Made by a program: the position numbers and the translations under genes
The notes under the pieces: generated by a model
The model's database searches: none
What the model was told of the DNA's origin: nothing
Seen by the model: the letters and a program-made list of their open reading frames with translations, nothing else
Source: a virus
Strand: one strand, 5' to 3'
Length of the DNA: 64,000 nucleotides
Virus record (IMG/VR): IMGVR_UViG_3300028591_000197
In this document: positions 5,351-52,776 of the stretch, piece after piece
How positions within the stretch are numbered: the first letter of the stretch is position 1
Layout of the letters: the number at the start of each line of letters is the position of its first letter

Positions 5351-8331
5351 ATGAGTGCAAGTGATGATGTTCTAAATCTATTCAATAATCGTAATAATTT
5401 ATTTAAATTACCATCTCAAAAGACTCTAGCAGAGAAAATAGCAGATGGGTCAATATCACAACCAGTATCAACTACCAATGAAGTACAAGAGGAGCTATTC
5501 ACTCCTAGTGCAATTTCTTCTGTTGTGAAAAATAATTTAAATAATCCAGGTTCACCTATATTAACTAATGGTTGACAGGATGATACCACTACACCTATTA
5601 CGCAATCATCACAAACAGATGTTGTATCGCAAGAACTACAAGAAACTAATGCAAATGATAATCCAGAGACACAATGAATTAGTTGATTCTGGAATAATCT
5701 TAAAACCTCTATGAAGGCTAGTAATGATTACGAAGCCAAGAAAAAACAAATAGCTCTATGATATGATGAAGATTCTGAAGAAGTTCTTTATCTAGACCTA
5801 GATGAGTCTGAATGAATTACAGATTCTCTTTGAGGAATTATATGAACTCGTGAAGCATTTGAACAAGCTTATGAAGACTATCTTTCTGCAGCATCTGACC
5901 CTACATTGTCAGAACAAGAACAGGCTAAATTACTCCTTAAGTTTTATGATGATACAAAATGATTATTTAGACTTAAGTGAGATGATTGGTATAGTGATGC
6001 TATCTTTTTCCAAACGGATGACACAAAAATGTTTTGAAAAAGAAAGGACCAGTATAGTGAGGAAACATTAAAAAATTTATCTGCTAATGGGACAAAGGCT
6101 TGAAAGTTTGAACCAACGTTTAATGAATGGCGAGAGTATATACAGACACAAGCAGAAAATGAGGGAATTCAAAAAGAAATTCTAGAATGATACGGAATTG
6201 CTTCAGATACTACAACTACAGAATTAGACCTAGAGGACTCAGACAAAACCCAATTAAATAGCTTGTTTGATAGGGCTATGGCTTGAGTGTTGCCAGCTAT
6301 TACTGAAAATATTCCTGCTGCCGAAACACATCATAATGTAATTTGAAAACTTAGAATGATGGCTAGAGAGCAGCTTTCGGACGTAGATGAGATAGCACAA
6401 TGAGTTTATAATATTGAAAAACTTGTATTACTTAAGCCAGAAAGTGAGCGAAATGAATACGATAAAGAAGTAGTTACTACAGCAAATGCCTTTAGACAGA
6501 TGGAAAAAGATTTTGCCGATTGATTAAATGATTTCTTCTTGCAAACAATTAAGGGTTGAATTGATGAGAATTGACAATTGACTAATTTGCTAGATATATA
6601 TGAAGACTGAAAAGAGCTTTGGGAAGTTTTATGAGATAAGGTTAGAGAAGACTTACCAGAATGAGTGATTGAATTTGCTCCCTGAAAAACTGCTAAAGAT
6701 GTCTTAGATAAGAATTGGTCTGTAAAGGATATATTCCAAGAACTAAACAATAGGGTTCGTTATCATTACTACAAAAATAATGTGCACGATGATAGTCGAT
6801 GGGGACGTCGTTGGGATGATTTGCAAAGATTTCGATGATTAGCTGAGGAGTCTTGGATGGAGATATGACAAAATGTGTGGCAATCTATTAGTTCATTATG
6901 GGATAACCAAACGGAATATTCTGACCAAGATATAACAAAAGCTAAGCTATTAGACGCAAATTGATTTTTGTATGACTATTTCTGAGGAGATACTATATAT
7001 AAATACATTTATTGATTAGAAGAGCTTTGACCAGAAACTGCTTGAAGCCTTTGAGCTATGTGGCTTGGGTCAAAATGATTTTGAGCGGCAGGTAGATGAA
7101 CAGGGTTCTTTACATCTATATCAAATAATATTTCTAGAAGTAAAAATGCCATCAATGCTATTAAAGCATTAAAGTGATGAACTCTTTTAGAAAGAATGGC
7201 AGCCCTAGATAAAGCTATGGCTTGAGTGTCTACTTGAACGAAGAAGTTGAGTGATATATCAAAAGCACTTACTACAAGCGAGAAGCGATGGATATGAACA
7301 AAATTAGCGGCACAAAAATTAGATAAACTAATTACAGAAGGTATTGTAGACCAGACAATGGATGCCTTATGGTCTCCATTTGATACTGAAGCATATTCTC
7401 CTTTAAGTATGCAATTATCTCTATGGTGAACACTTGGACTTACAATGCTCCCAGAATTAAATAAAGGTAAAGCCCTTACTTGATGGCTAACTAGGTCTGT
7501 TCGTGATACTTGAAACGGAATATGGGATATGGTTGACTTCTTAACATCTTCTAAAGAATGAGCTGAGCAATTCTATCAAGCATTCTGAAAAGATATTAGA
7601 ACAATGTCTCTTACAGACTTAGAAAATTTCAGGAAAAGATTTAAGGAAATGGAGTGAGCTGCAATTAAAGCTTACAATCAGTTACCTGAAGCTTGAAAGG
7701 AGGCGGCCTGACAATGGACGAAAAAAATGATGTATGATTATATTGCTCAGGCATTTGGAAGTAATTCAGAGATAGCAAAGAGTGTTAGAACTATCCTTAT
7801 GAATAAAAAAACCGACCCCGCAGATATAATCAAATATATCGGAAGGAATGCTTGAACAGTTTCATTTGGACCTTATATCTCTACAATTAAATTTAAACAA
7901 TGAACTAGGTGACTCGTATCTTGAGCATATGACCCAAGTCTAGATGCTCTTGGATGAGGATTTGCATCTAGATTAAGTTGAGGATTTACTCAAGATGATA
8001 TAAATAAACTTTCTAAAATATCTCATCTTGATGAAAATTGAAATCCAAAAGATTATGGTGATATAGTTAAGAATCAAGATAAATTATTCTATAAAAGTAA
8101 TTGAAAATTCTATTTAACTGAGGAATGATTAGAGCGTTTCTGATTATCAGCCTCACACGAATCTCTAGAATCTCTAGGTATTAGCTTAGCTAGAGCTGAA
8201 GAGGTTAAGGAGATATTAAGGGAGAAGATGAAATGAATGGGAAAATTATCTGATGATGTAATTGATGATATAGCTGAGACTTGAGCTTATGATGAAGTAT
8301 TAGCTAAAATGAGAGAAATAGTTTGTTAATT
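5351..8331 (+). CDS. giant protein 1 (about 993 aa), unknown function; virion or internal protein candidate
   Basis: The frame is continuous from ATG 5351 to TAA at about 8329 with about 60 in-frame TGA codons. It is Glu/Lys-rich and predicted helical, with recurrent AMAGV and GGF motifs. Track ORFs 5351.. and 6406.. are fragments or shadow ORFs of it. Confidence 0.55.
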
Positions 8332-8352
8332 TTATTTATGAAGTATCTATAA

Positions 8353-11300
8353 ATGGCGAAAGTTAAAAATTGTGAAGATATGGCAAACATATTAGCCGTA
8401 TCTTTGTTCACCTGAGATGAAGAGATGGCTAAAGCCTTAGCGGAGGCTTCATTCCAAAAGAGAGTGGCTATTTCTCGTAGTAAGAATTTGGATGTGTCTA
8501 AGGATAGTAAAGAGATAGATGAGCTTACAAAGCAATCCTGACATCACCTACATTTGAGAGCTGCTTCTGCAGACATACAGATTATGTCTATAATTCAAGC
8601 AAAGATTCTTAAATGAGAAGGTAGAGTTAAGGAAGCTGAGGCTATATTATGAGAAGCTTATCGTAGAATGTGATGAACTATATGATGATGAATTGATTTA
8701 TTAAATATGGTTCAAAACGCAAAGCCATCTGAATTGGATGAAATAGCTAGGCTTCGATGATTGAGTTGAAAAAAAGCCGATGAAGTTCTCGAACAAATAA
8801 ATGACCAGATAGCTAAGTTTGAGTCGTCAAACTATAGTATAAAACAGCACGCGGACTTTGTTCGTGACGATATGGCAAAGATTAAAAGTAAATATAGGAA
8901 GAAAGAGCGAGATGATGAAAAAATAGAGAAGGAAGTTGAAAAGGCATATAGGAAATGATTAAAGGATATTATGGAGGGAAATAACCCTACTGATATAGTA
9001 AAGCTTGATGAGGAATGGGCTCAAATAAAAAGGCTCTATCCTGTCAATTCTTCTATGAAATGAAAGACAAAGGAAAAAATGTTGAAGGCTAGGGCAGAAG
9101 CCTGGAGTCAATATATTATGGCTAGAGAAATTTTGGCTGATTGATGAATTGATGAAGATATATTTAAGGCTTTTAAGAAATCAATTAAAACAAAAAACCT
9201 AGCTAAAAAATTAACAATAGACCAGATTATGGCCTACAAAAAATGAGACTTAGACCTTTTGTTGGCTAGAGCTTATTTAAATACAAAGCAATTATGTGAG
9301 GATTGAGCACTTAGAAAAGCTTTTAGAGATAAGTTAGTTGAGCTTACAACTTGAGAAGATGTAAGTTGACAAACTTCAAAAAGGATTCAATCTATTATAA
9401 ATACATTAAAATTTTCTGAAGAATGAGCATCGTTTGCTACTGTACTTAAATACGATAATCTAGCTAATAGTGTGATTGACCGTGGGTTAACTACACAGAA
9501 GAAAAGATGAAAGAAAATATATGAATCAATTATGAAGTTCTGTAAAGAACTTAGGGAAAATCCAAACCTTCTTGAGGAAGAAATTGTTATCGATTGAATG
9601 AAGATGCAACCTGTAGATGTAATTCAATTGGTTTATGAAATCACTTGAGATAAAAATATTGTAGCTTTGTTAAATATTGGGAAATATGATGATAGTATTG
9701 TGTTAAATGTAGCATCTCAATATTTGCTAGGGAACAATAAAGCGGCTCAAGAATCTATTTTAAAGTTATTGGCTAAATGAAAGAAATGAAGTCAAATAAC
9801 AAATACTCGTAATTTGATATTAAAATCAATTACTTGACAAGATATTGAGGATTGAGCAAAGGTTGCTTTCTATGATTTTAGAGAGTGATTATATAATAAA
9901 AACAAACTAAATAGACGTAGAGCAGACTTTAGAGAAGCTCTTGCTAATAGAAACAGATTGAGGATTGAAGGTAGTGGTATTACAAATCTATCTGAAATTA
10001 AAGATGAAAAGTTATTAGCTAAAGCTTTGGATGAATTTGAATGATGATATTTGGTTGTAAATGATATAGCTTGGAGAGATAATGAAGTATTAAGAAAAGC
10101 AGTTAAAGATAAGAAGATTACAGTTATATTTCCAGAAAGAGGGATGACATCTAATTTTGTTTGGGAGGATAAAAATCTAATCTTTAGGACTAATGATAAT
10201 AAACTCTTTGAAAAAATTGCAGGTAAAATATCTATTCAAACATTATGATGAGCTAGACCTACTGAAGCAATTGAAGAAGCTTGAAAGAAGGTAAAAAGTT
10301 GAGCCACTGAAGCTTGACAAGAGATAAATGTAGTTAGAGAGATTGGAACTATAGATGATGATATAGAAGCTGCGGCAATCAAATATTATTGAGAAATGCT
10401 TTGAGAAACTACCCCAGAGAAATTAGATGATGAGTATGTTCGTAGAATAAAGAATATGCTAGCTGAACATCTATGACTTGATATTAAAGCATTTGATGCA
10501 ATAAAAGATAAAGCTGAGCTTTGGCAGATGATTGATGAGAAATTCTGTATGGAGAAGCTTACAATGTGAAGATATGAAATGGAGATAATTGATATGTGAG
10601 CAGAAATAAAGAGAATTGAGGATATGTCTCCAGAAGAATTGATTAAGGAAATTAAACAACATATCTGAGACTATTATAGTGATGAAGCTATGCTAGAGGC
10701 TTGAGTGTTTAATCAGATTAGAGAAGCATATATAGACTTTAGAACTGCAGAATCCCCAGAAACTATTTTGATGGCTAAGTGAAGAATGATGTCTTTGGCT
10801 GCTTGAGGGCAGGCAAAGAGAATGACTATGGACCAAATCATTTCGATGTTTCAAAAATGAACGATGGCCGATGTCTATAAAGAAATGTTCTTCCCAACTC
10901 AAGATTTAACAAAGGAACAGCTAGATACTTTGATTAATAGTATCAATGATGATTTATTTGATATTATTTGTCTACAAGTAGAGAATAACTTAGTAAAAGC
11001 TTGATATTCATTACCATTGATGAACATAAAATGAATGGTGTATGACTACATTAAGACAGGTGAAATATCTACAGCTTGAGATTTTGTTAGGAGTTTTGCT
11101 CTTAAGAATAACATAAATGACACTGTAGTTGGTGAAACTTTGCTACAGTTTATGCCAAAAGAAATTAAGTTTGACTATGAAGATGCTCTATATAAAGGTA
11201 GAGATTTAACTATAGAGAATGGTCAAAGAAGTGTATTTAGAGAGGCTAAAAATGAATTCTTAGAAGACAGTTATTCTGCTCTTGCTACTATAGAGATGGC

Positions 11301-14300
11301 TAAATCTTGAGATATGCCAGCTGGATATGAAAGAGAAATCTTAGAAAAAATCCTAGATAAATATATAAGCAAGTTTTCAGAAAGATTAGCTGCTTGATGA
11401 TTAGACTTTAGGGAAGCTGCCTGAATAAAACAAGAAGCGTCTTATGCTTTGGATATGTTTGAGCAAGATTTAGTTCTTGCTAGGTTTGGTAGATTAATGT
11501 CTCCGTCGGAAAGACAGTGATTGCTTTGAATGAAATATGAACTTCCTATTGCCGTGTCTTGACAAAATTCAAGCGATGTAATTAAGGAAATGGAAAAAAT
11601 CAAAGCTACTTTATTAGATAGATATGATAGGACATTAAAGAATGTAGCTGAAAATAACAAAATTAATGCCACAATAGCTAAATGAATGGATTGAAAAAAG
11701 TCCTTAAAAAAGAGAATCGAATTAAGAAAACAAAAACTTAAAGAAGACTGAATGGTTATAAAAGAAGTTAACTGACAATATCTTACATTTGATTCTAGAA
11801 CAGCATTACTCAATGAATTAAATAATTTATCTCCTAATATTAGGTGACTTGAATCCATCAAAGCTTTAGGTAAGAGTTGATTGGAGCAATTACCAAATGA
11901 ACAAGTATATGCTATATTAAGATATGTGGAAGCAGCAAAGGCTTTAGAGTCTAAGGCAAATTATGTTACTACATTAATGTATAAGCAAAGCCCAGAGTTG
12001 TTTAATTTACAGTTCTTTAAGAGTTATAAAGTTGTAGATTGATTACCAAGAATTATGCACGGTAATTCTCTACAGAATTTAGATGTACTTAAGAATCTTT
12101 CAAATACTTCTGTAGTTGATAATACAATGAAGAGACAAATCTTCAAAAAAATAAAAGAGGAATTTGGAATAAACTGAAAATTAACAGAGAAAAAGTTAAA
12201 GGCAATTATCAAGGAAGTGGTAGATGATAATGCTCAAGATATACTTTGAACTGCAAAGATATCTGTATATAAGAAGAAGTTGGCTACTGAATTAATGGCA
12301 TTAAAATACAAAAGGTTATTTAATCCATATACCCTTATTAAGGATTTGCCTACACAATGATGAGAAGGTTCAATAAAAAAGAAGGTTGAGGATATAATTA
12401 AAAAGCAATATAATGAAGCAATTCTCGATTTAAAAAATATGGGGATTGATACATTAGATAGCTTGGAAAATAAAATCTCAGTTATCACAACTTCTTGAGA
12501 AGAAAAGACTTTGAAAGAAATAGGGACTGAAAGTATCGATTGATGGAAGAAGGATGTATTTGATGATGAAACTATCTTTGTTAAGTCGGCAGACGAGATA
12601 AAAGATTTTGATACTAGCGATTGACATTGGGGAATACTTAGTAAATGGAGAAAAGATAAGGCAGTAAAAGAACAGAAAGCATATAGGGAAATGATTGCTA
12701 ACGAATATGACTCTACATTACAGACTATGCTTAATGGTTCTGAAGATATTACATCAGCAGAGAGAAAACTTATGACAGCTCTTTGGTTTGATGTGAGGTG
12801 AAAGATGAAAAAATATTCATTAACTAATCAAATTATCGAGACTGCTGATGTACTAGGTTCATTAAATGAAGAAATTGCTAGATGAATGAAAGACTATTTG
12901 ATATGATTTATATGAAATGCTTCATTCTGAAAACTTAATTCTAAAGCAATCACAGATAGATTAAAGGAGGTACAAACAGCATATGAAAAATTTTATACTT
13001 TAGATACGGCTTCTTTAAGTAGGGTTAAGCCTACAACTAAAGCAGAACATCTAGCATTAAACTTAACAAAATATTTTAAAACTATGGAGAATAGTTTATG
13101 AAGTTTTGATTGAGTTACTTGATGTACAACTGTTGCAGATATAAATAAAGCATTCTATCACATCTGAGAAGTGTTTATGAATCTAAAGTGAACTGAATGA
13201 GTATTCTCTTTATTGTCTGCTATTGAGCAAAACCAGATATTAAAATTCTTTAAATTCGCTGAGAAGTGAGATGATGCTTATGTAGATATATTCAAGCATT
13301 GATGACTTAAGGAAGATTGAGCTTTGGGTTGATATAGGGATTATGTAAATGAGGTGTCTCTTACGAGAGAGCAATTTAATCGTATATTTGGTGCAGCATT
13401 TGATAATCGAGATTATAAAGAAATAATGCAGGCTCTTTCTTGATTTACAATAACTTGAAGTTGGTTCTGAAGGCGAGGGCAAAGAATATTAAATTTCTTG
13501 AACTGAAGTACTTGGATGTGAAGATTAATTCTTTCTTATCCATTACAGTTGCTCTCAATACCTTTACAAGGATGAGCATATTTCTTAAAACAAATTTGAT
13601 TTGAAAGAAGATTATGAATTGATAGTTTGCGGGATATAGATGTGGTTAGAGATTGATTGTGAATTTGAAATGGAAGCTATAACGAATTGCTATGAATATG
13701 AAAGAGTTTAGTAAGTCCAGATGATTTGAACTTAAATTCTTACTACAATAGGTACTGAATACCTGATGTAGATAGAATATATAAATGAGCGAATTTTGAA
13801 ACCGCACAAGATTATTTAAGTATGTATGCTAATATAGATAACTATGCTTCTTCTGATGTCAGCTCTGTATCTTGGTGGTTTAGGCAACTTGACCCATATA
13901 AAGATAATGCAAACAATATTATAGACTGAGCATTTGCTAGAAACTTTAAGAATATAGCTTTCTACAAAGCTATGAAGGAGAATAATTTCCTACAGTTTGG
14001 CTCTGTGAGAGAGCTTACTGATTTCTTAAATAATCCAGAAATAAGTGCTGGAATTAAAGATAAGTTGATAAAAAGATTAGAAACAGATTTCGCTAAAAAC
14101 TTTAGAAGTATTCTTTGATTATGATTTGGTTGATTAGATAGACCAGTCGCCTGAAATGCTTTATGAAATATATTTATTTGACTAGCTAACTTATTTAATT
14201 TTAGGTGAAGTTGGTGAAGAAATATAGCTAAGCAAACTTGACAATCAATAATGTCTACTTTAAAATGGATTAAGATGAACCCATTATCAAAGGAGGCAAA

Positions 14301-16656
14301 GGAGGCAATGGCAGACTTCTTAGTAAAAACGCCAGAATTTATGAACTTCATATGAGATTGGTTTAACTGAATGCTTTGGTCTTGGAAGTTAATAAGGTAT
14401 CAAGATAATGGAAAGTGGGAAGACTTAGACCAACCGCATTCAATTATGGACTTCTTAGAGTTCTTAACAGATAACTTTAGTGAGATGGCAGGAATGATAT
14501 TTACAAATGCTAATCTTACATCTCAATGGCTACAAGGTATTGAGTCTTATGGAATTGCTAGACCAGTAATTGAAGCTATTGGTTCTATGTATTTAAGTAG
14601 TCAAAATCCAACTATATATAAAGATACTTGGTGAGTTTGAGCATTGTTTAATTCTATTGGTAAAAACTTTGGAAGACAATGGAAGACTAGAAACTTCATA
14701 TTTAAGCTTCTTTGAGTACGAAGGACTGACTGAGCTTCTTGAGTTGAGGCATTTATTCAAAACGAATTATGGAAATTATCTTGAGGTTCTGTTAGATATA
14801 TGGTAACCGAAGATATGAATTCTTATTGATATACAATGGAAATGACTTGAGAAGAGTGAGGTTGAATCCCTTCTCTATTCTTATGAGAAGCTCCTATTGG
14901 TTCAGATAAGACATTTATGTATGAATTAGATAATACAGAGGTTTGGGAAACTATAAAGTTATTGTTTGATGATGATTTAGCTTGGAGTGATAAAAAAGCT
15001 TATGCAAGTAATCTTACTAGATGATTAGTTAATTCATCTCAATTACTTTCTGCTGGATATAATTCTTGAAAGCTGTGGCATTGAGAAGATTTTACTCATC
15101 CATTTACAGAGAGTGATTTAGCAGGAGTTCTTACAAAGACAGAATATTGAAAAGAATTCTATAGGAAGTGATTAGTAACTCCAAAGAATCCAGATGATGC
15201 TAGAACATTCTATGACCAGCTTACTAAGAATTGACAATATAGGCCTTGAAGTGAAAGCTTTAACACATCCATAGAGAACTTTAACAAGACTTGACATATG
15301 GATGGAAAGGATTGAAAAGAGGCAGACAAGGAAATGGAACTTTGGTTAAATCATATGAAGTATTCAACTAATGAACATTGAGAATATATCCTTAAAAGTT
15401 GAAAGAAAGTTGAAGATAAAGCTTGGACAATGCTTATGCAAGACATTAAATCACATTATTATGACCAAGATTATGTTACAGATTTAGTATATCAATATTC
15501 ACAGAAATGGTTAGATGTACATTCTAGTGACCCTAATTATCCTCTATATCTTAAGATGTTGTGACAATGAGCTGCTTATAGGCTTATTCAAGATTGATTA
15601 AATAGAGAAAAAGAGCTCCTTAATATCTTTGGTGGTAAAAAGGCTAATGAAAAATGGGATTTAAATGAACTTAAAAAGGCTTGATACTTGGATGATTTAA
15701 TCTTTAAAGTTTGAAATAGCAAAATTCTTTGAGGAGATGAAACATATTTCGAGAGATTGCAAGCTCTAGACCAAGATGCAGCAATTGATGCTTCTTTGAT
15801 GCTAGCAGCACAGCAAGTAAAAGATGAAACGGATAAAAAAACTTTGGAAAAGTTCTTTAAGATTGTCGAGGAAGATGATTGAACAGGAGAAAAAATTAAA
15901 TCTATTCAATTTGAAAAACAATATCTTGCACAGCTAAGACAGCTATGAGCTATGGAGATTGCTAAAGATGAATGAAATTTAGAAAGATTTATAGCTGAAG
16001 CTGCAAACATAACTAATATGTTTAGCAACGATGACCCAACTTGAGTTGTAACGGCTAGCTTAATTGATTCTATTTATGAGAGAATTAATTCGTCTAACTT
16101 ATCTTGAGCACAAAAGGTTGAGGCTATGGCGGCTTTATTTCATCATAACAAAGATTTAATTCAGCGTAATCCTGAATTAATGAGAGAATACTTATGAGAT
16201 GATTATGATAAGTATGCTAAATATATGAATACAATTTTGTACTGATGGGATTGACAACTTATCTCTACAATCGATAGTATGATTACAAGTAATGATGATG
16301 ACACAAAGAGCACTTCTTGAAAGTGAGCTTCATTATCTTCAGCATTTAAAAGTACTTGAATGAAGCTTTGAGGAAACAATTATTCACAGTCTGTGACTAC
16401 TTGAAGCTGAGAATACAAACAATGGATTCCTATCACTATTGGTTGAGCAGAATTAGTTAGAGCTCTTTGAGTTAAGTGATATACTCCAGATGTGTCAAAG
16501 GTTAAAGTTAATAGTTATAAACCTCACGTTGACTTCTCTATTAAGAAAGATGTTAACAGAAGTGTTAATTGACCAAAAACACAACAGATATCAAATAAGA
16601 AACAATTAAGCAATCTTACGAAGAAAGCTAAGAAGGCACTTGAAGCAGAAAATTAA
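8353..16656 (+). CDS. giant protein 2 (about 2767 aa), unknown function; candidate ejected or internal virion protein
   Basis: I walked the frame codon by codon from ATG 8353 to TAA 16654-16656 and met no TAA or TAG, but well over 150 TGA codons. Track ORFs 10051.. and 14371.. lie in the same frame. Confidence 0.6.
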
Positions 16657-16660
16657 TAAG

Positions 16661-16730
16661 ACACACAGACATACTCGGGTGGAACAATCCTCCACTCGAG
16701 GTGATGTATGTGTCTTAAAATATTTTTGAT
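16661..16730 (+). terminator. rho-independent terminator after giant ORF 2
   Basis: Long hairpin (gacacacagacatac-tcgggtgga...tccactcgag-gtgatgtatgtgtc) followed by ttaaaatattttt. Confidence 0.5.
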
Positions 16731-16811
16731 GACGGTAGTACCTGATATTTCCTTTTATATTTTATGCCAATAAAAATGTGAATTGATGTAAATCAGATGG
16801 AGGAGGATGTT

Positions 16812-17098
16812 ATGACAGAACACGTTGCTCCAGAAAATGAAAAGGCTAGGGAAATGCTAGACAGAATTGTTCAACAAGAGTTATGAATGTCTGCTCAAGA
16901 GCTTTACCTTAGATGACTTGTACAAGAAATTAAACGTTTACAAGAGACACAAGAGAAGTGATACGAAGAAAAACTTTTAAAGTATTACAAAGAAATTGAC
17001 AATATATGCTGATTTTCTAAGGACAAGAGAGATGTTAAAATCGAAACTAAACTTAGAAGTACAGCTGACATTTTTAATTCTACAACTCTTAACTAATG
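16812..17098 (+). CDS. hypothetical protein (about 95 aa)
   Basis: The ATG is preceded by ggaggagga. Its stop overlaps the next ATG (ctaATGg). Confidence 0.45.
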
Positions 17099-19143
17099 GA
17101 AAATATAGATAGCGAAGTTAAAAAACAAGAGCAGGAGAGAAAAAATAAAATCTACCAAGACAATTCTACCGACTCTGAGCGCACCATCTATGGAAAATTA
17201 AAGAAAATCTTGTATCACTTTAGAGACAACATCTTTCCAGAATGGTTTGATGTAGTTAAAATGGATAAACTTTATTCTAAAGAATATGAGGCTTGACTTA
17301 AAAGACATAATATGCAATACAAATCAGCTAAGATTTATCCACTTATAACTTCTATCCACGATACATTTATGGCTTCATTGTACGACAATGACCTTCGTCC
17401 TAAAGTGTTTCCTATGGAAGAAGTAGACCCACAAATTGTTGATGATGCCCAGTTATTCTTCCAATGGGGTACTGAGATATCAGAGACAGAACAAACTAAT
17501 GAAATTATTAGAAATGAAGCTTCATTGATTTGAGCATCTTATGGTATGCCAGGTTATACTACAAGTATAATGAAGAATGATGACTGAGAAAATGTAGTTA
17601 CATTCATTCCTTGTTTATTCCCTGTGTCTGCATTTGAAATGTTCTATAGTGTTTGAGCAACAGACTTTTATAAGGCCCCAGAGAAATTTAGGAGAAGGTT
17701 TATCCCATTTGATTGATTAAAGGATGCCTTCTATCCTATATGGGATTGAAAAGATTGAATGTGAAAACAATTAGAGAAAAAGAAGTCCGCTATCCTAGAA
17801 GCACCTATGCCACTTAGTAAAGCAGATTTTACGAAGATATATGACATTGATGCATACTCACAAACATATTTATGATACTTGGGTGATGGAACTGCTACGG
17901 GTATGATTTATGATGATACATTTAACATCTTGGATAGCTCTAGTTACTGTGAAGTAATTGACCTATATATAGGCGATAAGCTTATGGTTATGGTGAATGG
18001 TTATTTTGTTTATTCTGGAGAAAGTCCTTTCAAATATTGAGAAGACTTTGCTATTACAGGGAAGGACGGGCCATTTATTGAGCTAACATTTGAGAAATGA
18101 GTTGGATGTATTCCTAGTGGAATTGGTAAGAAAATTATGGGACACCAGAAACAGTGTAATGCTCTATATAATTCTTTAGCAGATGCTATGTATAGACATC
18201 TTAATCCTGTATTAGCAGCTGTTCAGTGAGCGATTACTGACCCTACTACAGGTAATGCCCCTACATCTATTGGATATGATGAGTGAAAAGTTTACTCAAT
18301 CAATCCTTCATATGCAGGAATGAATAATGCAATCACAAAAATAGACTTTACTGATTACAACATTCTTCAGTTAGCTATGAATCACTTTGAGAATATCAAA
18401 GCTGATGCCTATACAATTTGTTGAGTTAACTCATATGTTCTTGGTTGAGAATGAAAAATTGAACGTTCTCGTTACTGAGCAGAACAGAGAGTTAATGCTT
18501 CAAAAGCTAGACTTAGTCCTATGATTAAATCTATAGGTAGATTTTATGCTAAGTTATTCTACCATTGGCTATGACTTGCTAAGCAGAGTTGAGCTAGTGT
18601 AGCTTATGTACAGAACGAAGACGAAGAATATGTAATCAATCTTTCTGAACTAGATAAGAAGTTTAAGATTGTATGTTCTGCAGATATTTGAGTAGAGGAA
18701 ACTAAAGCTTCTAAAGTTCAGTGACTTCTTACTATGATGCAGAATACTTCAGCATTTGCTACAAATCCTATTACAGGATTGCCAGATATTGATAATAAAG
18801 CATTCCTTGAAAGTGTTGCAGATTATGCAGGGCTTAAAGGATTTAAGGCTATGACAACTGATGAGCAGAAGCAATATATTGATGAAAGTTATCAAATTAA
18901 AGATTATATACAAAAGAAAGAAATAGAGGCACAGAAGCAAGTACAAGAAGCTCAGCCTCAACAACAGCAACAACCACAGGCTATGCCAACTACCAATGGT
19001 CAGCCTAGTGAAGAAGAAATAGCTATGATGATGCAACAAGCTCAAGCAGCTAATCCAGAACAATCAACATTACCTTATGTAAATTCACAGTACCCAGAGG
19101 TGGTAGATGAAAGCCAATTAGACTTTGTAATGCCTCAATAATA
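17096..19143 (+). CDS. putative portal protein (about 681 aa)
   Basis: Track ORFs 17096.., 17312.. and 18734.. are one frame once TGA is read through. Size, position (upstream of the scaffold-MCP pair) and a Q-rich acidic C-terminus (QPQQQQQPQAMPTTNGQPSEEE) all fit a portal. Confidence 0.4.
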
Positions 19144-19151
19144 TTAAATAA

Positions 19152-19190
19152 AAGCCCAGGTGTTAGCTTGGGTTTTTTATTTTAATTCAA
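19152..19190 (+). terminator. probable terminator after the portal gene
   Basis: Hairpin aagcccaggtgttagcttgggtt followed by ttttatttt. Confidence 0.35.
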
Positions 19191-19216
19191 AAAGTTATAG
19201 CGAAAAGCCTAAATTT

Positions 19217-19232
19217 TATAATCTATATATAG
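19217..19232 (+). promoter_or_regulatory. conserved promoter-like motif copy 2 (TATAATCTATATATAG), upstream of the scaffold/MCP genes
   Basis: Exact 16-mer preceded by a T-tract, with an immediate downstream hairpin gaaaagg...ccttttc. Confidence 0.55.
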
Positions 19233-19375
19233 AAAAGGTGATAATTGGACGCCTTTTCGTAAGTGATGCGTAGACGCATAATGGTGATGGTGGTTGAATG
19301 GATTAGCTAGCTATGGGATAGTACTTCGAGTTGGTAGGCGAAGGAAGCGACATAGTCTACACATAGCTAGCAATA
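19233..19375 (+). other. structured 5' leader: hairpin 19233-19259; palindrome atgcgt-ag-acgcat; long-range stem tagctagctatg/catagctagc enclosing a tRNA D-arm-like hairpin cttcg-AGTTGGTAGG-cgaag
   Basis: Inverted repeats read directly from the sequence. The loop AGTTGGTAG matches the canonical tRNA D-loop, but I could not build a full cloverleaf. Confidence 0.3.
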
Positions 19376-19408
19376 TCTATTCGTATTTTAATTCATAAAC
19401 TTTTGATT

Positions 19409-20314
19409 ATGAACGGGGAAGAAACCACAACAATTGGACAAGTAGCCGAAAGTCAGGCTAATATATCCAATCCAACTGAAACTGCTCCAGTAGCAGAACA
19501 GCCTGCTCAGCCTGTACAACAACCCGAGCAACCTGCAGTTGAGGAAAACAACTGAACTTGAACTTCAAGTTGAGATGTGCAAACAACTCAAACAGCCGAA
19601 GCTCCTAATCCAGACGATGTCTTAGACCAGGTTAATGCAATACTTAACGAGGATAAAACATTAGAGTCTGTGGCACAGGAGACTGAGGAATCACAAAATC
19701 AGAAGGAGAATGAAGCAGCTCTAGCTGATATTGTTAAAGAACAAACAAAAGACCTTCCATCCGAAGAGCCAAAGGATGTAAATACCGAGGCAACTTCTTC
19801 TACTGAAGAATCAGATAAGCTTGACGAAGAGTTAAAGCAATGACTTGAAGATATCAAAGATAAGAAGTCTGCGGAAGATATGGCTAAGAAAGTTTATCTA
19901 GCTTTCCAAAAAGAACGTAGTATGCACCAGTTCGATAACGAGCAGAATAAAAATACTATAGATATTCTTAAAGGGATGGTTAGAAAATTAAATGAACAAG
20001 TTACTACGGCTGATAATGACCCGAGAGTAACGAAACTTGATGACGAATTCTATACTCTCTGGAGATTAGAACAGTCGTACAAAAAAGATAAGAGCGATGC
20101 TAGTAGAAAGAATTTAACTCGCTACTATGTTGCTAAGTTGGCAGTAATGAATCCTTCATTAAATGCCAATCAAATAATGGATGTTTTTGAAAAACCTTCA
20201 TTAAAATCAAACACTATGTGAGAAGGTAGCCCTACGTCTGCTCCTGTAGCTGAAGTAGTTAAGCCTACTCCAACTCCTATGGGCGTTCCTCTTCGTAAGA
20301 GATGAATGTTCTAG
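19409..20314 (+). CDS. acidic, helical scaffold-like protein (about 301 aa)
   Basis: ATG at 19409, with track ORFs 19577.. and 19880.. in its frame. It is E/D/Q-rich and sits between the portal and MCP. It ends with TAG at about 20312-20314. Confidence 0.45.
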
Positions 20315-20378
20315 AGTTAATTATTTATCTAATTAACGGTGAGCCGCGCTTGGAATAGCGTGAGCTTTTTTCTTTTTA

Positions 20379-20399
20379 TTTTTAATAGGTTAATTAAAT
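20379..20399. repeat. 21-nt exact repeat TTTTTAATAGGTTAATTAAAT abutting the MCP start codon; the second copy at 57498-57518 abuts the SSB start codon in inverted gene-relative orientation
   Basis: Exact match seen in the sequence at both sites. Confidence 0.5.
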
Positions 20400-21945
20400 G
20401 GCAGGAACAACTGTTTGTAATCCTTGCGATGCAGCTGGATTGGCTGCTGACTACAGACCAGATTGTGCTGAAGGACTTTCTGGAAAGAGCATTGAATTAC
20501 AGAAAATTTTGAACCCATTATATGCTAATGGACGTGTTTTGGAAACTTGGGGACAGTATGAAGATTTCCTAAGATATGAAACAATCTTCTTCGATGTAGT
20601 ACCTCAAAAAGACCCTACAACAGGAGAAGTATACGTAACTTATAAATTCAAAGATGGTTTAGCTGCTTCTAGCGAACTAACTTTGGTTGATTGTGAATGT
20701 AAAGTAGGTTGGTATGAACCAAGAATTTGTGGTGACGAAACTAAAGTAGCTGAAGCTGCTGAAGTTGGAGCTACTGCAATCGTTGTTGAATCTTTGGCTC
20801 CATTAGGAGGAGTTGACAGAGATTCTACAATCCTAGTTATGAGACAAGGTGGAAATCCAGTTAATGGACTTTACATCGACCACATTGATAGTGCTACAAA
20901 TACTATCTACTTAAAGAGACCTTTGACAGTTGCTTTAGCTGTTGGAGACAAAGTTCGTAGAGGAGCTTACTTAAGAGACAGAAGTTGTGAAACTGAAATC
21001 TATAATCCAGTAGAATTAGGAGGATTAGATTACTATTCTGCTTTCTTCAGAACTATCTCTATTTCTCACGAATTTAATTGGTGTGATTTGAACAAAGACT
21101 ACCTTATCTCTGGAGGAATCCAAGCTATCGTAGATGCTATGTTCAGAAAAGGAGACATCGAAGCTATTAAAGAATTCTTACACGCTGCTTTCTATGATAG
21201 AAACATCCAAGTTTCTGCTCATAAATGGGAGACTATGGGACTTTTCCCTGCTCTTGCTAGAGCTCAAGCAAATGGATTAAAGATTGCTTTCGACCTAGAA
21301 GGATGCTGCGACGAATCAGCTTCTGAATGTGTAAATGCTAGACATCAAATTCAATCTTTCTTGGATATCGTAATCAATAAAGCTACTGTATCTGGAATGT
21401 ACAAAAACAACGTAACTGTTGCTATGAACAAGAAAGCTATGGAAGGATTACATATGATGCAAGGATATTTCCAAGATTATGGAAATGTTGGATTCTTAGA
21501 TGGAAGCCAATTCGATATCGATGTTGGATTACCAAGAATTAGATATGCTGGTATTACTATCACTTTCAAATACTTGCCAATCCTTAACGATTTCGACTTC
21601 TCTGTAATGTTAACAATCCCTGAAGATAAAGTTGGAGTATTCCAGCCTAAATACACTGTAGTTGACACTAACGGAAAAGTTGTAGCTAATGCTAACATTA
21701 ACGGATACATCTCAAAAGGAACTCCTATGTTGAGATACTTACCAGATAATCCTTACAATATCTGAGCACAGCTTGGAGAATGTAACAAGATTGTTGGAGA
21801 TGTTAAATTCGCTGTAGTATGGATGTGAGTAGATAAAGGAGCTTATAGATTCATTAAGAACTTTGGTTCTTGTGTTCTTAACGCTTGTGATGTATGCTCA
21901 TTAGAAGATGTAGATGTAATTGATGGTGAACTCGATGTAGACTAA
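20398..21945 (+). CDS. putative major capsid protein (about 515 aa)
   Basis: This is the only long standard-code ORF (455 codons with no TGA). TGA codons at 21766 and 21829 are read through to TAA at 21943-21945. A scaffold-like gene lies just upstream and a strong terminator downstream. There is no TGA in 455 codons although TGA is frequent in the other structural genes. Confidence 0.55.
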
Positions 21946-21959
21946 TATAGTCTTTCAAA

Positions 21960-21998
21960 GTGGGAGGGCTTAACTTAGCCTTCCCATTTTCTTTACTT
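21960..21998 (+). terminator. rho-independent terminator after the MCP gene
   Basis: Stem tgggagggct-taact-tagccttccca followed by ttttcttt. Confidence 0.6.
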
Positions 21999-22015: not shown

Positions 22016-22665
22016 AATGAAGGTAAAAGATATTTACAGCTGAACTAATATAACCGATAGTGGTTGTGAAAGTAAGATAGCGAGATTTAATGATATCCTA
22101 TCCAGCTTTGCAATAGAGGTCTTTGACTTCTACCCTAGAAAAGTTATGGAGAGATTTACTCCTGTTGATGGGACTTATACAACAAAGTATCCTATTGCTA
22201 AAGTGCGAGGGTTCTTTGGTAAAGGTTGTAAAATATGATGTAGTTTAGACCCAAAAGACTGTTGTGCTTGATACAAGAGACTTTTGATGGAGGAATTATA
22301 TTGAGATAGTTTGAGTGATTTGGATGCAAATAGTTATTCTATTGTATTCGATAACGATAAAGAATGAGAACAAGTAATTGATACTATCAACTTTAAGCTG
22401 CCTTGTGGAACAGATGATGTTCTTATTATCTATTCTAAATGATTCCCTAAAGTTACTTCATTAGACCAGGATATCGATATTGATAGATATACTCTTTCTT
22501 TGTTGAGGTTATATATGAAATCTGAATATGCCTTAGAAGGAGAAAGCGACATCAATATGTCCGCTAACTACTATAGTAGGTTCCAGACAAAATTAAAAAG
22601 ATTAAAGGAGATGTTCGACAATAGTCTTAAATACATCGTTCCTTGAGCTTTAAATGCTGCTAATA
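22016..22665 (+). CDS. hypothetical protein (about 216 aa), Cys-containing
   Basis: Continuous frame from ATG 22016 to TAA 22663-22665 with TGA read as sense. Confidence 0.4.
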
Positions 22666-25044
22666 GATAAAATGGCACAACAAGATAAAACAGATTGGTA
22701 TTGGAATGGGGTGCTTGCGGGTGCTGTTAATAATCTATATTATGACTTTATTAATGTAGATGTGGTACATACACCATATGCTACTCACAATAGAAATTCC
22801 TCATTCTTTTTGCAAACTAGAAGAAATTATACTCCATCTTTTAAGTGGGATAAAGTTGCTATGGATAACCACAAAGAGCGAGATGTTATGGATGTAAAAT
22901 ATGTTTGGGATAGTACTTGTTCTAAAGAAAAAGGTAATGTATTTGTTCTTCTAGCTAACAAAGCGAGAAATAGAATTAGAATTCATAGAGCTAAAATAGA
23001 AGACGGATGTGTTCAGGATTTTGATTGGAATAGGCAATGATGACGTGAAATGGTTGTTAGTTGATGTTGAGCTTTCAAACTTTTCACTACAGACTATGTA
23101 AAATGAAAGATGCGTACTCCTTGAGATGTTAAAGATGACACGGGGATTTGAACTCCTGAGTCTACTTGAGGATATGATGGAATTATGATGAATAGGATAG
23201 TAGCTTGAACTACTCGTGGATATTTTACAGATGTGAATGTAAAAAACTGAACAGAAAAATTTATTTCTCGTGGACAAGACGAAGACGACCCAGAAAGATG
23301 ATATGCTGTAGGAGATTATATATTAGTTTACGATTCTCGTAATAGTAATGGAGATTGAATTCCTTGACAAGTAAGAATGATTATTTGAATGGAATGAGGT
23401 AAGCTAATGGTAAGTGAACCTTGGCAATGATTAAAAACTCCAGAAGGAGATGTTGAATGGGTTGAATGAAAATGAGTTAAATATGCTATCTTCCCAGAAT
23501 GGGGAGAGGTCGTATGATTTACTCAATGAAGAAATATATATATAGTAAATGATGCTGATGCGACATCAAATTGGAAACAAGAAGTTTATGACCAATCGTG
23601 ATTAGCTTATACAAGCATATTATCTATAGCTGACATTAGTGATAAAATATTTGTCTTAACTGACAACTGATATATCCACTTTTCTACAGAGGCTTGATTT
23701 GATAAATTCTATATCAATGACACGTCACAATATATATGAGCCGACAAATCTTCTATAGTTGGGTATAAAGATATGATTATTGCTTTCTGAGATAGACATA
23801 TTGCGGTATGAATTATGGACGAAAGTAACGAAAGGCTTAGTGTATATAATCAATCTAATACAGTATGAATATGGAGTAGATATGCTTACACAGAATATGA
23901 TTGAGATTTAATTTTTGTTTCTAACGACAAGAGGTTATTGGCATTATGAAATGCTAGTAATGTTTGAAGATATATGCTTCAATATGAAGATGTGTGAGAT
24001 ATGATAAATTGAAAATTATCTACACTCATTGTTTGAGATGAAGTATTTCTTTGAAGCGATGAAAATGATTTAAAAATATTCCTTCAAACAAAGTCTAGAC
24101 CATTCTATAATATACATTGAGACTTTAGGGCAGACTTAAGTGAATGAGCATATTTATATGAAGACTGAAGTAAGGCTTGAGAAAATAGTTATAGGCAAGA
24201 GAATACGATGACTCGTATTATTAAATTTGATAACCTATTCAAAGTTTGGACAGAGGATTGGGTACAATGAATTCTTCTACAATGAGTAGAATGATGAATC
24301 TATTTCGGAGAAAGTTGATTGTATCAAAGGTCAATGTGAAGATATGATAACAAGTGAAATATAGCTGCTGATTCATATCCATTTAAAACATATATATCTG
24401 CATATTTAATCGAGAATGAAAGTGATTGGGTGTGATGAACAAATAGTTGGTTGGCAAATAGACCTAAATTATACAACTTGTCTAAATTAAATAGGCTTAT
24501 TACAATTCTTTGACCTTGAACATATACTAACTGAAGCATTATTAGAGTTACTTCATATATAAAATGATTATGAACTGTTTATGAATTCCCTATTGATTGA
24601 GATTGAAATGATTGGCTATGACTAATTACAACAAAATATAGTGGAGAAAGATTTGATTGAGATGACGAGAAGAAGCTAGAGTGTATGGCTTCTGTATTAC
24701 AAGATAATAAGAAATCATATCAACCAACTTGTGTGTGAACTCCAAATGCTGCTATACAAAATATAGCACAACAACAGCCTTGGTGTGACAATTATTCAGA
24801 GCTACAAGTGCTAGATAAGTGAGTTTGTATAGACGATAGTTTGTATGAATTTGCACCTACTATGCCTTTAGCTACTGATTTATGAGAAAACCAAGATTAT
24901 GCTACACAAATCAAATTAGAGCTAGTTTGACAAAGTTGAGATAAAATATCTTTTGGAGGTTGGCTTTGAGAGATGTTTGTAGCTCCTTTATTTACAAAGT
25001 GACCAGATTGAGAATATCAATTAAAACCAAATACTAATTGTTAA
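22654..25044 (+). CDS. large structural protein (about 795 aa), unknown function
   Basis: Track ORF 22654..23040 continues through the TGA at 23038 to TAA at 25042-25044. I walked the frame. The real start may be the ATG at 22672. Confidence 0.5.
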
Positions 25045-27921: not shown

Positions 27922-29103
27922 ATGGCTAAAAAAGTTATTGACAAACTTATGTTAAATGGGCAAGCGTATCAAACTGCCTATGACAATACACTTACTATCC
28001 AGAAGAACTGAACGACTGTAGATAGCGTTAACCTTAATGCTACTGCTGATAAAACTATAAACATTACAGTCCCTACAAACTCTGATTATGTAGATTTAAC
28101 TTCTGCTCAAAGTGTAGGTGGAGTAAAAACTTTCACTAGCGAAATTGTAGTTCCTTCTAAAACTACAGACGCAACAAATACAGGAACTTCTGTTGCTACA
28201 GAAGCTCAGGTTTACAAAAAGCAAGATGCTTTAAGTTTACCTTCAACTCCTACAAGTGGTAACTTAGTTGCTTGGGGAGCTGACAATAAAACTCTTGTAG
28301 ATGGATGAGCTATCCCTACAGGATTCAACCCAGATAATGCTGGTTCTGTTGGACAAGTTTTGAAAAAGACTAACAATGGATACGAATGGTGAACAGATGA
28401 GGGACAGACTTATACAGCTGGTACTAACATCTCAATTGATGCTAACAATGTAATCTCTGCTGTAGATACAACTTATTCTGAAGTATCTAAGTCAGATATG
28501 GACACAGGGACTTCTACAACAGCTGGAGTTGTTTCAGCTAAATCTATCGCTGATTATGTTAGCGGAAGAATTGGAAGTGCTGTTGAATATAAATGACAAG
28601 TAGCTGATTACGCTTCATTGCCAGCAGACCCTGAGGTAGGAGATATGTACAACGTAGTCGCTGCGCATACAACTGCTCCTGAATTCGATGCTTGAACAAA
28701 TGTAGTATGGAATGGAACAGCTTGGGACCCTATGGCAGAGATGGTTGACTTATCTAATCTAGTAGACTTAACTTCTGCTCAAACAATTAGCTGAGCAAAG
28801 ACATTCTCTACAGAACCTATCTTACCTTCTAAAACTTCTGCTGCTACAAATACTTGAACTGCTCCTGCTTCAGAAGCACAGGTATACGCTGTAGCACAAT
28901 CTATTCCTACAGTTAATGATGCTACAATTAGCTTCACACAAGCTGGTAATAGCGTAGGAACATTAACTACAAACCAAGGTACAGCTGGAACATTAGCTTT
29001 TGCTGGAGTTATTCCTGCTACACAAGCTGAATGGGACGACTTACCAAGTTCTAAAATGACAGACAATAATACTTATTTAATATATTCTACTATTAATGAC
29101 TAA
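27922..29103 (+). CDS. tail fibre protein (about 393 aa)
   Basis: It contains a cassette of about 110 aa (SAKSIADYV...GDMYNVVAAH...TAWDPMAEMVDLSNLVDLTSAQTIS) that is near-identical to a segment of the 32305 gene. Its C-terminus is ...NNTYLIYSTIND. Confidence 0.6.
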
Positions 29104-46801: not shown

Positions 46802-47557
46802 ATGGCTATATTATGAATAGATGTAGCTAGGAATAATCTGCAAATAGCTTGAAGAAAGTATGCAGAAATTCAAAGGCAGTTAGATAGATATAATAAAGTA
46901 TTTGAAGCATATTCTAATGCTAGCCCAGAAACACAGATAAGAGCTGAATCTGTAATTAGATATGCTCTAGATGTTTACACTGGATTAAAGAAACAGCAAG
47001 AAGAAAATGCTATGAAAATGTATGAAGCACAGCAATGGGTTAATTATTATAGACAAAATACCCCACAGACAACACAAACAATTCAGGGTGATTTACAGAA
47101 TACCCCATCGCAAGACCCTATAGTCGATAGAACTGAGGCGGCTCCTGTGGAAACGGTACCTGTAATAGCAACAACAACTCCTTGAGCATTAAACAATAAT
47201 GCTCCAACAACAAATGTTGATACTACTACTTTGAATAACACTTCTGTGGCAACTTCTAATGTACAAGTTAATCCGACAGCTTCAGTTTGAACTACAAATA
47301 TAATTAAATCTCAAACTCCTAAATATCCTAACACAACAATAAGTCCTGTACAGACAACTACTCCAAGTAATGTTAATTGGCCTAACTATTGACCAGGTAG
47401 TGTGGCACAAATGCCAGGTACTTGAAATGTTCTTTCATTTAATACTACAATGCCTTATTCTACTTGAAGAAAGACGACTACTAGCAATTTATGAAAGACG
47501 GTTAATGAATTGTTTAGGAAATGAGCTACATATTTATATAATTATTTAAGAAAATAA
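46802..47557 (+). CDS. hypothetical Thr/Asn-rich protein (about 251 aa)
   Basis: Continuous frame with TGA read as Gly. Its stop overlaps the next ATG (TAATG). Confidence 0.4.
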
Positions 47558-51416: not shown

Positions 51417-51606
51417 AAAGTGAATATTAGGAATACAGCACTTAACGATACTATGAGTGTTATACATAATATAGTGAAGTTAAGTTCCATCTCCTTCATC
51501 CTCTTTTCAAGTTTGCTATTTTTTGAAATGAGAGTTTCAATTAACCTATTACAACTCTTTATCTGCTCATCCACAGATGTTTTCTCTTGGGTCATAGGTT
51601 GGCTCG
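51413..51606 (-). CDS. small tail-anchored membrane protein (about 64-96 aa); start uncertain
   Basis: Track ORF 51413..51703 ends in a C-terminal TM helix (LNFTILCITLIVSLSAVFLIFTL). Its 5' portion overlaps the 3' end of the upstream gene in another frame. Confidence 0.35.
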
Positions 51607-52235: not shown

Positions 52236-52259
52236 TTTGTTTTTGTTTAAGAAAATAAA

Positions 52260-52769
52260 TTAGAAACCACAATATCCTCCGATGAGTTTATATTCTTCTT
52301 CGTTCAAGAAGAAGGCAGGCTGTTTCTCTTCGTTAATTCTTTTTTCTTTGAATTCATTTAACTCAGCATTAGCTTCATCTGTTACTTTCTGATATTTATC
52401 AGACAATTCAGATAGCTGTTTATCTAAGTTAACAAGCTCCTCTTCCTTTTCATTATCCCAATTTCATCCAGCTTTTTCTTTTGCTAACTCGTTTCTTTTG
52501 TCTCCGATAGGTTTCATCTCTTCTGAAATTTTATCCCATTCAGGTTTACATTTTGTTTCAACCAACTCGTGAGCTTTAGCTTCAATCTCTGCTCCTATAG
52601 CTTTGTAGGTATCAGAGGCTTCTAATAGTTCTATAATTTTACTGATTTTCTTTAGGTCGTTGCTAAAGAGATTTACCAAATCTCCGAATGTTACAGAGGC
52701 AATGGTTGTGTGAAGCCACTGGTCAATAAGTCTAGCTTCTTTAATGCTTATAGCAGTTTGTTTTGCCAT
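52260..52769 (-). CDS. helical hypothetical protein (about 169 aa)
   Basis: Track ORF 52464..52769 read through its TGA to TAA at about 52260. Confidence 0.45.
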
Positions 52770-52776
52770 TTTTTTG

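Follow-up and report, generated by a model that had tools for sequence, protein, structure and literature searches.

Genetic code and gene layout of the window

The DNA analysed here, a stretch of 64,000 nucleotides corresponding to the IMG/VR virus record IMGVR_UViG_3300028591_000197 and referred to below in its entirety as the window, contains a gene for a major capsid protein (MCP) that hardly uses TGA, in a genome where this codon provides more than half of the glycines. The G+C content of the window is 34%. Under the standard code, open reading frames (ORFs) of at least 150 codons cover 10% of it, compared with 106% over six frames when TGA is taken as a sense codon, and recoding of TAG or TAA brings a far smaller gain in coverage. 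In the set of 56 genes, which was taken from the ORFs bounded by TAA or TAG, in-frame TGA is present in 56 out of 56, on both strands; it amounts to 937 of the 1584 glycine codons when all genes are pooled (0.59), and to 4.7% of all codons across the window. Dense in-frame TGA, in long ORFs that exist solely with TGA as sense, is the pattern by which phages using code 25 are recognised. The window represents the greater part of a tailed-phage genome, the host being a code-25 bacterium and most likely an Absconditabacterium.

The MCP gene is located within a plus-strand block (1868-51378) that also encodes a portal protein, a scaffold-like protein and, according to weak PHROG matches, a fibre- or baseplate-like protein, so that at least part of this block is virion structural. 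The features that surround the MCP gene, with the TGA fraction of the glycine codons in parentheses, are the following:

5351-8329, plus strand: giant ORF 1, 992 amino acids (aa); 58 TGA and 26 GGN codons (0.69).
8353-16656, plus strand: giant ORF 2, 2767 aa; 158 TGA and 53 GGN codons (0.75).
17096-19141, plus strand: portal protein (phrog_156, E = 2.3e-9); 21 TGA and 25 GGN codons (0.46).
19150-19177, plus strand: terminator-like hairpin 3' of the portal gene, a 12-bp stem followed by a T run.
19409-20314, plus strand: acidic scaffold-like protein, 301 aa, between the portal and MCP genes; 6 TGA and 5 GGN codons.
20345-20362, plus strand: small hairpin just 5' of the MCP gene.
20398-21945, plus strand: MCP, 515 aa, with an HK97 fold in the structural model; 2 TGA and 43 GGN codons.
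21763-21765, plus strand: first TGA of the MCP gene, codon 456.
21826-21828, plus strand: second TGA of the MCP gene, codon 477, at an invariant glycine.
21957-21990, plus strand: strong terminator-like hairpin directly 3' of the MCP stop codon, with a 14-bp stem.
22017-22670, plus strand: adaptor gene, which contains CGA.

The gene at 20398-21945 can be assigned to an MCP on the basis of its predicted HK97 fold and of its position 3' of the portal and scaffold-like genes. The structural model was built on a homolog, P0001, that is 98% identical to the MCP of the window. At E <= 0.01 the protein has no PHROG or Pfam match, none of its relatives could be confirmed in IMG/VR, and no match was found among GenBank phages (INPHARED collection), the family being known solely from metagenome assemblies. 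When the MCP neighbourhood is compared with that of relatives, conservation within the block is highest for the MCP. The scaffold-like gene is also kept in relatives and has no PHROG match; its putative role is judged from position and composition.

That TGA encodes glycine in the window follows from two observations. First, MCP homologs translated with code 4 show sporadic tryptophan at 33 columns, most of them otherwise conserved glycine, whereas the true tryptophan columns are purely tryptophan. Second, at the invariant glycine columns of eight neighbouring genes other than that of the MCP, 65% of the codons are TGA. In addition, 55% of the residues aligned to a TGA codon are glycine, as estimated from nine neighbouring genes and five relatives.

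TGA is nearly absent from the MCP gene

The 45 glycine codons of the MCP gene comprise 2 TGA, 36 GGA and 7 GGT, which departs strongly from the pooled fraction of 0.59 (binomial p = 7e-15). Moreover, at the TGA frequency of the window, 455 TGA-free codons in a row would be expected by chance with a probability of 3.5e-10. An earlier note on this DNA had described uneven TGA usage among genes, with some 60 TGA among the roughly 90 glycines of giant ORF 1, and an MCP gene almost free of TGA whose only two such codons were placed among the last 55. Our per-gene counts bear out this description: the TGA fraction is heterogeneous across the 35 genes that have 10 or more glycine codons (chi2 = 185, p = 1e-22), giant ORF 1 has the composition given above, and the two TGA of the MCP gene are codons 456 and 477 of 515. 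A misreading of the MCP frame, which the same note had allowed for, is excluded by the 72 homologs that align over the full length of the protein and by the HK97 fold of the model.

Heterogeneity remains significant after exclusion of the MCP gene (chi2 = 128, p = 4e-13), and the MCP gene is therefore the extreme of a continuum rather than a case apart. Low TGA fractions are also found in two other plus-strand genes, of which that at 27922-29103 is the second most TGA-depleted large gene after the MCP gene, and in several minus-strand genes. The minus-strand genes are located at 228-1501 and 51549-63608. The features concerned are the following:

27922-29103, plus strand: TGA-poor gene, 393 aa, Thr/Ser-rich and with internal repeats; 7 TGA and 24 GGN codons (0.23, p = 4e-5).
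47557-48435, plus strand: TGA-poor gene, 292 aa, with three 'GW.STPEGPRYGGGIKTV' repeats; 10 TGA and 22 GGN codons (0.31).
51549-63608, minus strand: block of presumed early or replication genes, including a C5 DNA methylase and an SPFH protein (Pfam).
56830-57495, minus strand: SSB-like ORF, 221 aa, with an acidic C-terminal tail ending in DTDELPF; 5 TGA and 7 GGN codons (0.42).
62817-63608, minus strand: SPFH/Band-7 protein (Pfam, E = 1e-31).

The product of 27922-29103 is probably a fibre or surface protein, with no clear family in PHROGs or Pfam. For the ORF at 56830-57495, the count of 5 TGA in 222 codons reported previously is correct, but its identity as SSB could not be confirmed, as the sole match is to phrog_6706, of unknown function, and there is no Pfam match.

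TGA usage also differs between strands. The fraction is 0.43 in the minus-strand genes, including the two at 228-1501, and 0.64 in the plus-strand genes without the MCP gene (Fisher p = 2.6e-8), while glycine content is 5.3% and 8.5%, respectively, the latter value including the MCP. The lower fraction of the minus-strand genes is compatible with a benefit of a phage tRNA to the late genes. However, since the MCP gene is itself a late gene, such a benefit does not explain its depletion.

The depletion is confined to the reading frame. In-frame TGA occurs 3.9 times per 1000 codons in the MCP gene and 47.9 times elsewhere, whereas the two other frames give normal values, 13.6 versus 12.0 and 46.5 versus 44.8 per 1000. 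Depletion thus acts via translation, and not via a DNA or RNA motif. This result contradicts the possibility that the TGA trinucleotide is avoided in the DNA or transcript of the MCP gene as the target of a nuclease or restriction system, or else that the gene has been fitted to an alternative host with the standard code. The latter could invoke the phages compatible with code 11 that are described for code-25 hosts in the available text of Liu et al. 2023 (PMC10746230). Yet all other essential genes of the window need UGA as a sense codon, so that a single compatible gene would bring no gain in host range, and we consider both variants extremely improbable.

Depletion of TGA is conserved in the capsid family

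The comparison covered the MCP neighbourhoods of five relatives; identity of their MCPs with that of the window ranges from 51% to 81%. In the orthologous MCP genes TGA provides 2/44, 3/35, 2/39, 0/43 and 0/38 of the glycine codons, against fractions of 0.5-0.88 in their neighbouring genes, and GGA is the dominant glycine codon in all orthologs examined. The rare TGA codons of the MCP homologs fall at glycine columns; over the 72 homologs, TGA (visible as W) turns up sporadically at glycine columns of the N-terminal part, and the invariant glycine at codon 477 is encoded by TGA in 46 of 64 homologs (72%).

These data can be confronted with the proposal, also made in the earlier note, that the MCP gene is a recent acquisition from a standard-code lineage. 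The variant considered here has a phage as donor, and TGA would not have had time to build up in the gene. Nothing beyond the low TGA count itself speaks for such an import. Against it, 72 out of 72 homologs belong to one recoded family, in which synteny is conserved; depletion is seen at all identities between 81% and 51%, with the few TGA sitting at glycine columns; the G+C content at third codon positions (GC3) is 0.25, similar to that of the neighbouring genes; and the reference collections mentioned above yielded no confirmed relative. We therefore regard a recent import as refuted, that is, as having next to no probability.

The codon bias of the family is not uniform along the gene. In the last ~80 codons (about 21703-21945 in the window), and taking all relatives into account, TGA rises from 4% to 26% of the glycine codons and ATA from 3% to 21% of the isoleucine codons, GCT falls from 77% to 53% of the alanine codons, and the bias in AAA relaxes too.

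Two candidate explanations for features of this 3' end were rejected. First, an overlapping element is at odds with the finding of no extra synonymous conservation at the MCP 3' end. Second, a two-product MCP, with a short form made by termination at TGA 456, is at odds with two facts: distant relatives have neither glycine nor TGA at this position, and conservation extends to the C-terminal segment, part of which is well modelled. Gene callers using code 11 do cut the MCP at codon 456, as in the 455-aa protein P0008.

As a separate observation on this family, 13 cysteines are invariant in the aligned homologs (sets of 27 and 34 sequences), at positions 7, 10, 101, 111, 197, 229, 303, 304, 311, 462, 492, 497 and 500, including an N-terminal CxxC and a C-terminal CxxxxCxxC motif. 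HK97-fold capsid proteins do not usually show such a pattern, which suggests that the cysteines bind metal or form disulfide cross-links.

The MCP gene has the strongest general codon bias

The bias of the MCP gene is not restricted to glycine. When its codon usage is compared with that of the other 55 genes, the following shares of synonymous codons are obtained:

TTC (Phe): 91% in the MCP gene, 37% in the other genes.
ATC (Ile): 59% in the MCP gene, 16% in the other genes.
ATA (Ile): 0% in the MCP gene, 38% in the other genes.
TAC (Tyr): 52% in the MCP gene, 20% in the other genes.
GCT (Ala): 88% in the MCP gene, 59% in the other genes.
GAA (Glu): 96% in the MCP gene, 71% in the other genes.
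AGA (Arg): 90% in the MCP gene, 61% in the other genes.

AGG, CGA and CGG do not occur in the MCP gene. Significance at p < 0.01 is reached in each of six families (Ala, Glu, Phe, Gly, Ile and Tyr), Val and Thr show a weaker bias (p = 0.02-0.05), and overall the bias is the strongest in the window. In the ranking by non-glycine codon bias, the MCP gene is followed by the gene of the SPFH protein and by the SSB-like ORF, in second and third place, with 27922-29103 also among the next. Across genes, and without the MCP gene, low TGA fraction goes together with this bias: the non-glycine bias index correlates with the TGA fraction with rho = -0.43 (p = 0.011), and the C-ending fraction of the Phe, Tyr, Asn and Ile codons does so with rho = -0.46 (p = 0.006). 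A bias that affects multiple codon families, is graded over genes and is kept in orthologs is the classical signature of translational selection in highly expressed genes.

Translational selection can act on speed or on accuracy. In the second case, UGA would be decoded ambiguously, through near-cognate tRNA-Trp, drop-off or residual termination, and it would have been purged from a protein of which hundreds of copies have to assemble. Rare non-glycine peptides at UGA found in the proteome of a code-25 bacterium (PMC4032931) agree with this idea, as do the wobble ambiguity of U34 between UGA and UGG (PMC8629427) and the fact that a relative of the phage, described in the following section, carries both a tRNA(UCA) and a tRNA-Trp(CCA). 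Selection for accuracy should, however, spare the conserved sites from TGA. An Akashi-type test on the eight neighbouring genes mentioned previously gave TGA fractions of 0.65 at invariant and 0.675 at variable glycine columns (Mantel-Haenszel odds ratio 0.93, p = 0.31). As TGA is equally common at both kinds of site, its avoidance belongs to the gene and not to the site, which favours speed or supply over accuracy. In addition, the invariant glycine 477 of the MCP itself is mostly TGA in homologs, and the bias of the MCP gene extends to codon families in which no ambiguity exists. On balance, we find purging for accuracy unlikely.

A relative carries a tRNA(UCA) beyond the end of the window

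The earlier note had also suggested that the TGA-rich late genes rely on a phage tRNA-Gly(UCA) encoded outside the window. Using ARAGORN, no tRNA was found in the 64-kb window, nor in the structural-region loci of relatives. The last 61 nt of the window exactly match one 2.8-kb JGI contig that extends 334 nt past the window end; these 334 nt contain no tRNA, and an exact search of IMG/VR with the 3' half of the tRNA(UCA) described below yielded no match. Related genomes past the window end could be reached through homologs of the genes at the end of the window. Among the relatives that reach beyond its right end, the closest, termed L014, is an 83-kb contig collinear with positions 54001-63999 of the window and 93% identical over the SPFH gene.

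L014 has eight tRNAs located 1.2-4.2 kb past the point that corresponds to the right end of the window (L014 5155-5643 and 7958-8122). These are, in order, Ser(GCU), Gln(UUG), tRNA(UCA), Ile(GAU), Glu(UUC) and Arg(UCU), followed by a gene of 752 aa, an odd tRNA and Trp(CCA). The 752-aa product combines AAA_33, Metallophos and T4-type RNA ligase domains (kinase/phosphatase/RNA-ligase), and looks like a tRNA repair enzyme. The tRNA(UCA), at L014 5328-5404, has G1:C72, C2:G71, G3:C70 and U73, and scores 60.4 bits against the standard tRNA model, without being Sec-like. Since these are the acceptor identity elements by which tRNA-Gly(UCA) is recognised (Shulgina and Eddy 2021, PMC8629427; Giege 1998), the L014 tRNA(UCA) is predicted to be of the glycine type. 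The odd gene, at L014 7958-8031, is tRNA-like (52 bits to RF00005), but its 6-nt anticodon loop, AACGGA, allows no normal anticodon to be assigned.

In a lineage of lower similarity (L011, L017), in which partly overlapping loci span this part of the genome not covered by the window, no tRNA is found there, and relatives that are free of tRNAs in the stretches fetched have equally TGA-rich genes. The suggestion of a phage tRNA outside the window is thus partly supported, as one relative has it and other TGA-rich relatives lack it in the stretches fetched. A tRNA-Gly(UCA) in the window's own genome is plausible, and within the phage family this tRNA is dispensable. Furthermore, as every gene, including the presumed early ones, carries TGA, decoding of UGA by the host must suffice, and a phage tRNA can at most be a supplement.

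The same data allow evaluation of a temporal or supply-based control, akin to the timing control that the earlier note had borrowed from stop-codon-recoded phages. Under this scenario, TGA-rich genes would need a phage tRNA-Gly(UCA) that accumulates during infection, with the MCP gene insulated from this dependence, for example against a host defence that targets tRNAs. The L014 tRNA(UCA), in a cluster of eight tRNAs beside a gene that resembles those for tRNA repair, would be in agreement with it, and so would the higher TGA fraction of the plus-strand late genes. Four facts argue otherwise. First, 56/56 genes hold TGA, the presumed early ones included, so that decoding of UGA has to work as soon as infection begins. 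Second, the equally TGA-rich relatives without tRNA include the region of the L014 cluster among the stretches fetched. Third, the MCP gene is a late gene amid TGA-rich late genes. Fourth, the MCP gene itself relies on codons whose tRNAs are phage-supplied (ATC, GAA, AGA). The timing control is not supported in view of the first and third of these facts, and a supply-based control in general appears quite unlikely to us.

Proposed explanation: UGA as a valid but non-optimal codon

We consider it likely that the depletion of TGA in the MCP gene reflects ordinary codon optimisation, in what would be the phage gene with the heaviest translation load, with UGA being a valid but non-optimal glycine codon. 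According to this explanation, the host would read UGA as an ordinary glycine codon by means of a dedicated tRNA-Gly(UCA). TGA being the most A+T-rich of the glycine codons, mutation bias towards A+T in a genome with 34% G+C would make it the default (59%). The MCP would be the protein that a tailed phage makes in the largest amount, and its gene is presumably the most highly expressed. Selection for efficient translation would keep its glycines at GGA and GGT, and its other codon families at their preferred codons, and since the strength of such selection would scale with expression, the effect would be graded over genes, with the MCP gene as the extreme.

In this mechanism UGA would be decoded correctly, its decoding capacity being the limiting or slower route. 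The poorer performance of UGA may have its origin in a single dedicated tRNA, whose abundance is perhaps limited since its U34 anticodon could also read UGG; misreading of UGG by tRNA(UCA) with U34 has indeed been considered before (Shulgina and Eddy 2021, PMC8629427). In the host, tRNA-Gly(UCA) would be less abundant than tRNA-Gly(UCC), or slower. The window's own genome may carry a tRNA cluster like that of L014. The hairpins that flank the MCP gene, mainly the one with a 14-bp stem (21957-21990), are in keeping with a transcript that is abundant in its own right, although they are only suggestive. The proposal of the earlier note that the most expressed virion gene may be purged of a slowly decoded codon is supported by the bias in multiple codon families, by the correlation of this bias with low TGA usage, and by its conservation in orthologs.

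Several points weigh against codon optimisation. Both the high expression of the MCP gene and the slow decoding of UGA are inferred. The bias index was built from the preferences of the MCP gene itself, and leaving this gene out of the correlations removes the circularity in part only. The MCP gene of the L001 lineage is less depleted, with 15 TGA out of 40 glycine codons, yet it is still below its own neighbours. The relaxed bias of the last ~80 MCP codons is not predicted by simple efficiency models. Finally, in the text available to us, Liu et al. 2023 (PMC10746230) argue in the opposite sense for code-25 hosts, in that TGA-dense phages would be the codon-optimised ones.

It is tempting to speculate further, although we deem this extension rather doubtful, that UGA is kept as a second-class codon in code-25 systems, with its decoding capacity held low on purpose, for example to limit wobble to UGG. 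Phages would then purge TGA, CGA and CGG from the capsid gene, and some would import a tRNA-Gly(UCA), a tRNA-Trp(CCA) and a tRNA-repair enzyme, while TGA 477 and the relaxed last ~80 codons would constitute a selected late pause for capsid folding.

If codon optimisation is the correct explanation, UGA has been fully reassigned to glycine and is nevertheless selected against where the demand for translation peaks. As the signal is kept across the capsid family, sequence alone is enough to reveal what a reassigned codon costs in fitness. A practical side is that a capsid ORF free of TGA, when it lies in a recoded genome, can be wrongly taken as evidence of the standard code or of a foreign source.

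CGA and CGG behave as tryptophan codons

Table 25 does not describe the code of the window in every respect. At alignment columns where the other sequences have a clear majority residue, CGA pairs with W in 22/47 cases and with R in 4/47, and CGG with W in 10/17 and with R in 1/17, whereas in the controls, CGT and AGG, the columns pair mainly with R and K. CGA and CGG thus behave as tryptophan codons in the window and in relatives L002-L017, and the codons affected in the window, 65 CGA and 10 CGG (about 75), are mistranslated when table 25 is used. The MCP gene, as seen above, contains neither. This reassignment has been predicted for Absconditabacteria (Shulgina and Eddy 2021, PMC8629427), and its match in the phage supports these bacteria as hosts. 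Among the papers available for a text search, none other than that eLife paper itself matched for CGA/CGG as tryptophan in a phage of Absconditabacteria. In addition, a related 10-kb contig of the L001 lineage was binned with an Absconditabacterales metagenome-assembled genome.

Other features of the window

Giant ORF 1 has a weak match to a PHROG of unknown function, and a partial homolog in relatives L011 and L013. A giant gene 5' of the portal gene is kept in all relatives fetched (2662-3602 aa), and giant ORF 2, which occupies this position in the window, has no Pfam match; PHROGs and Pfam were uninformative for both giant ORFs. The SPFH protein has more than 2000 close homologs, and the longest of the contigs that carry them (about 30-84 kb) resemble genomes of phages. 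The minus-strand protein encoded at 228-1178 contains an internal repeat, 'NQVTENQSDG', in two copies.

Upstream of the genes, a TTTA element starts 20-30 nt 5' of the start codon in 47/56 genes, with a peak at -23 and against a background of 10%, while Shine-Dalgarno-like GGAG, GAGG or AGGA motifs are present 5' of the start in 1/56 genes. The TTTA element suggests an unusual promoter or initiation signal.

Comparison with known systems

Phages of Absconditabacteria and Gracilibacteria that use code 25 have been described previously (Borges et al. 2021 preprint, 10.1101/2021.08.26.457843; Liu et al. 2023, PMC10746230). As far as the accessible parts of these reports go, their phages resemble that of the window in the dense in-frame TGA of nearly all genes, in the collapse of ORFs under code 11 and in the alignment of TGA with glycine. 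The searchable text of both papers deals with genome-wide TGA usage, with about 90% of the genes recoded, and it describes neither a purge of TGA from the capsid gene nor CGA and CGG as tryptophan codons in phages.

With regard to the capsid protein, the closest known systems are HK97-fold MCPs such as those of Vibrio phage VP1 (9in6), SU10 (7z45) and phicrAss001 (7qof). The MCP of the window differs in that it matches no sequence family of Pfam or PHROGs and in the 13 invariant cysteines of its family.

The crAss-like and Lak phages (Borges et al.), stop-codon-recoded phages that infect standard-code hosts and switch code in mid-infection, provide a second comparison. They have in common with the family studied here a tRNA for the recoded stop codon, which in our case is present in relative L014, and a higher density of the recoded codon in the late module. 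Early genes compatible with the standard code are the hallmark of code-switch phages, and these are lacking in the window, where every minus-strand gene has at least one TGA. Unlike in those phages, moreover, the recoded codon specifies glycine instead of tryptophan, the capsid gene is the least recoded and not among the most recoded, and the host most likely shares the code of the phage.

A precedent comes from Blastocrithidia, in which depletion of the reassigned stop codons is described for genes with high expression (PMC12153298). As in the MCP gene, a reassigned codon that is valid is under-used where translation demand is highest, along a general axis of codon adaptation. The window differs in being from a bacteriophage, with a bacterial UGA=Gly code and a dedicated cognate tRNA, and in that the contrast is extreme (4% versus 59-77%) and kept across a whole capsid family, expression level being inferred in this case. 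Overall, the depletion of TGA in the MCP gene is real, yet for the most part an ordinary effect; it adds one more example, unusually clean and conserved, to a type of depletion already known.

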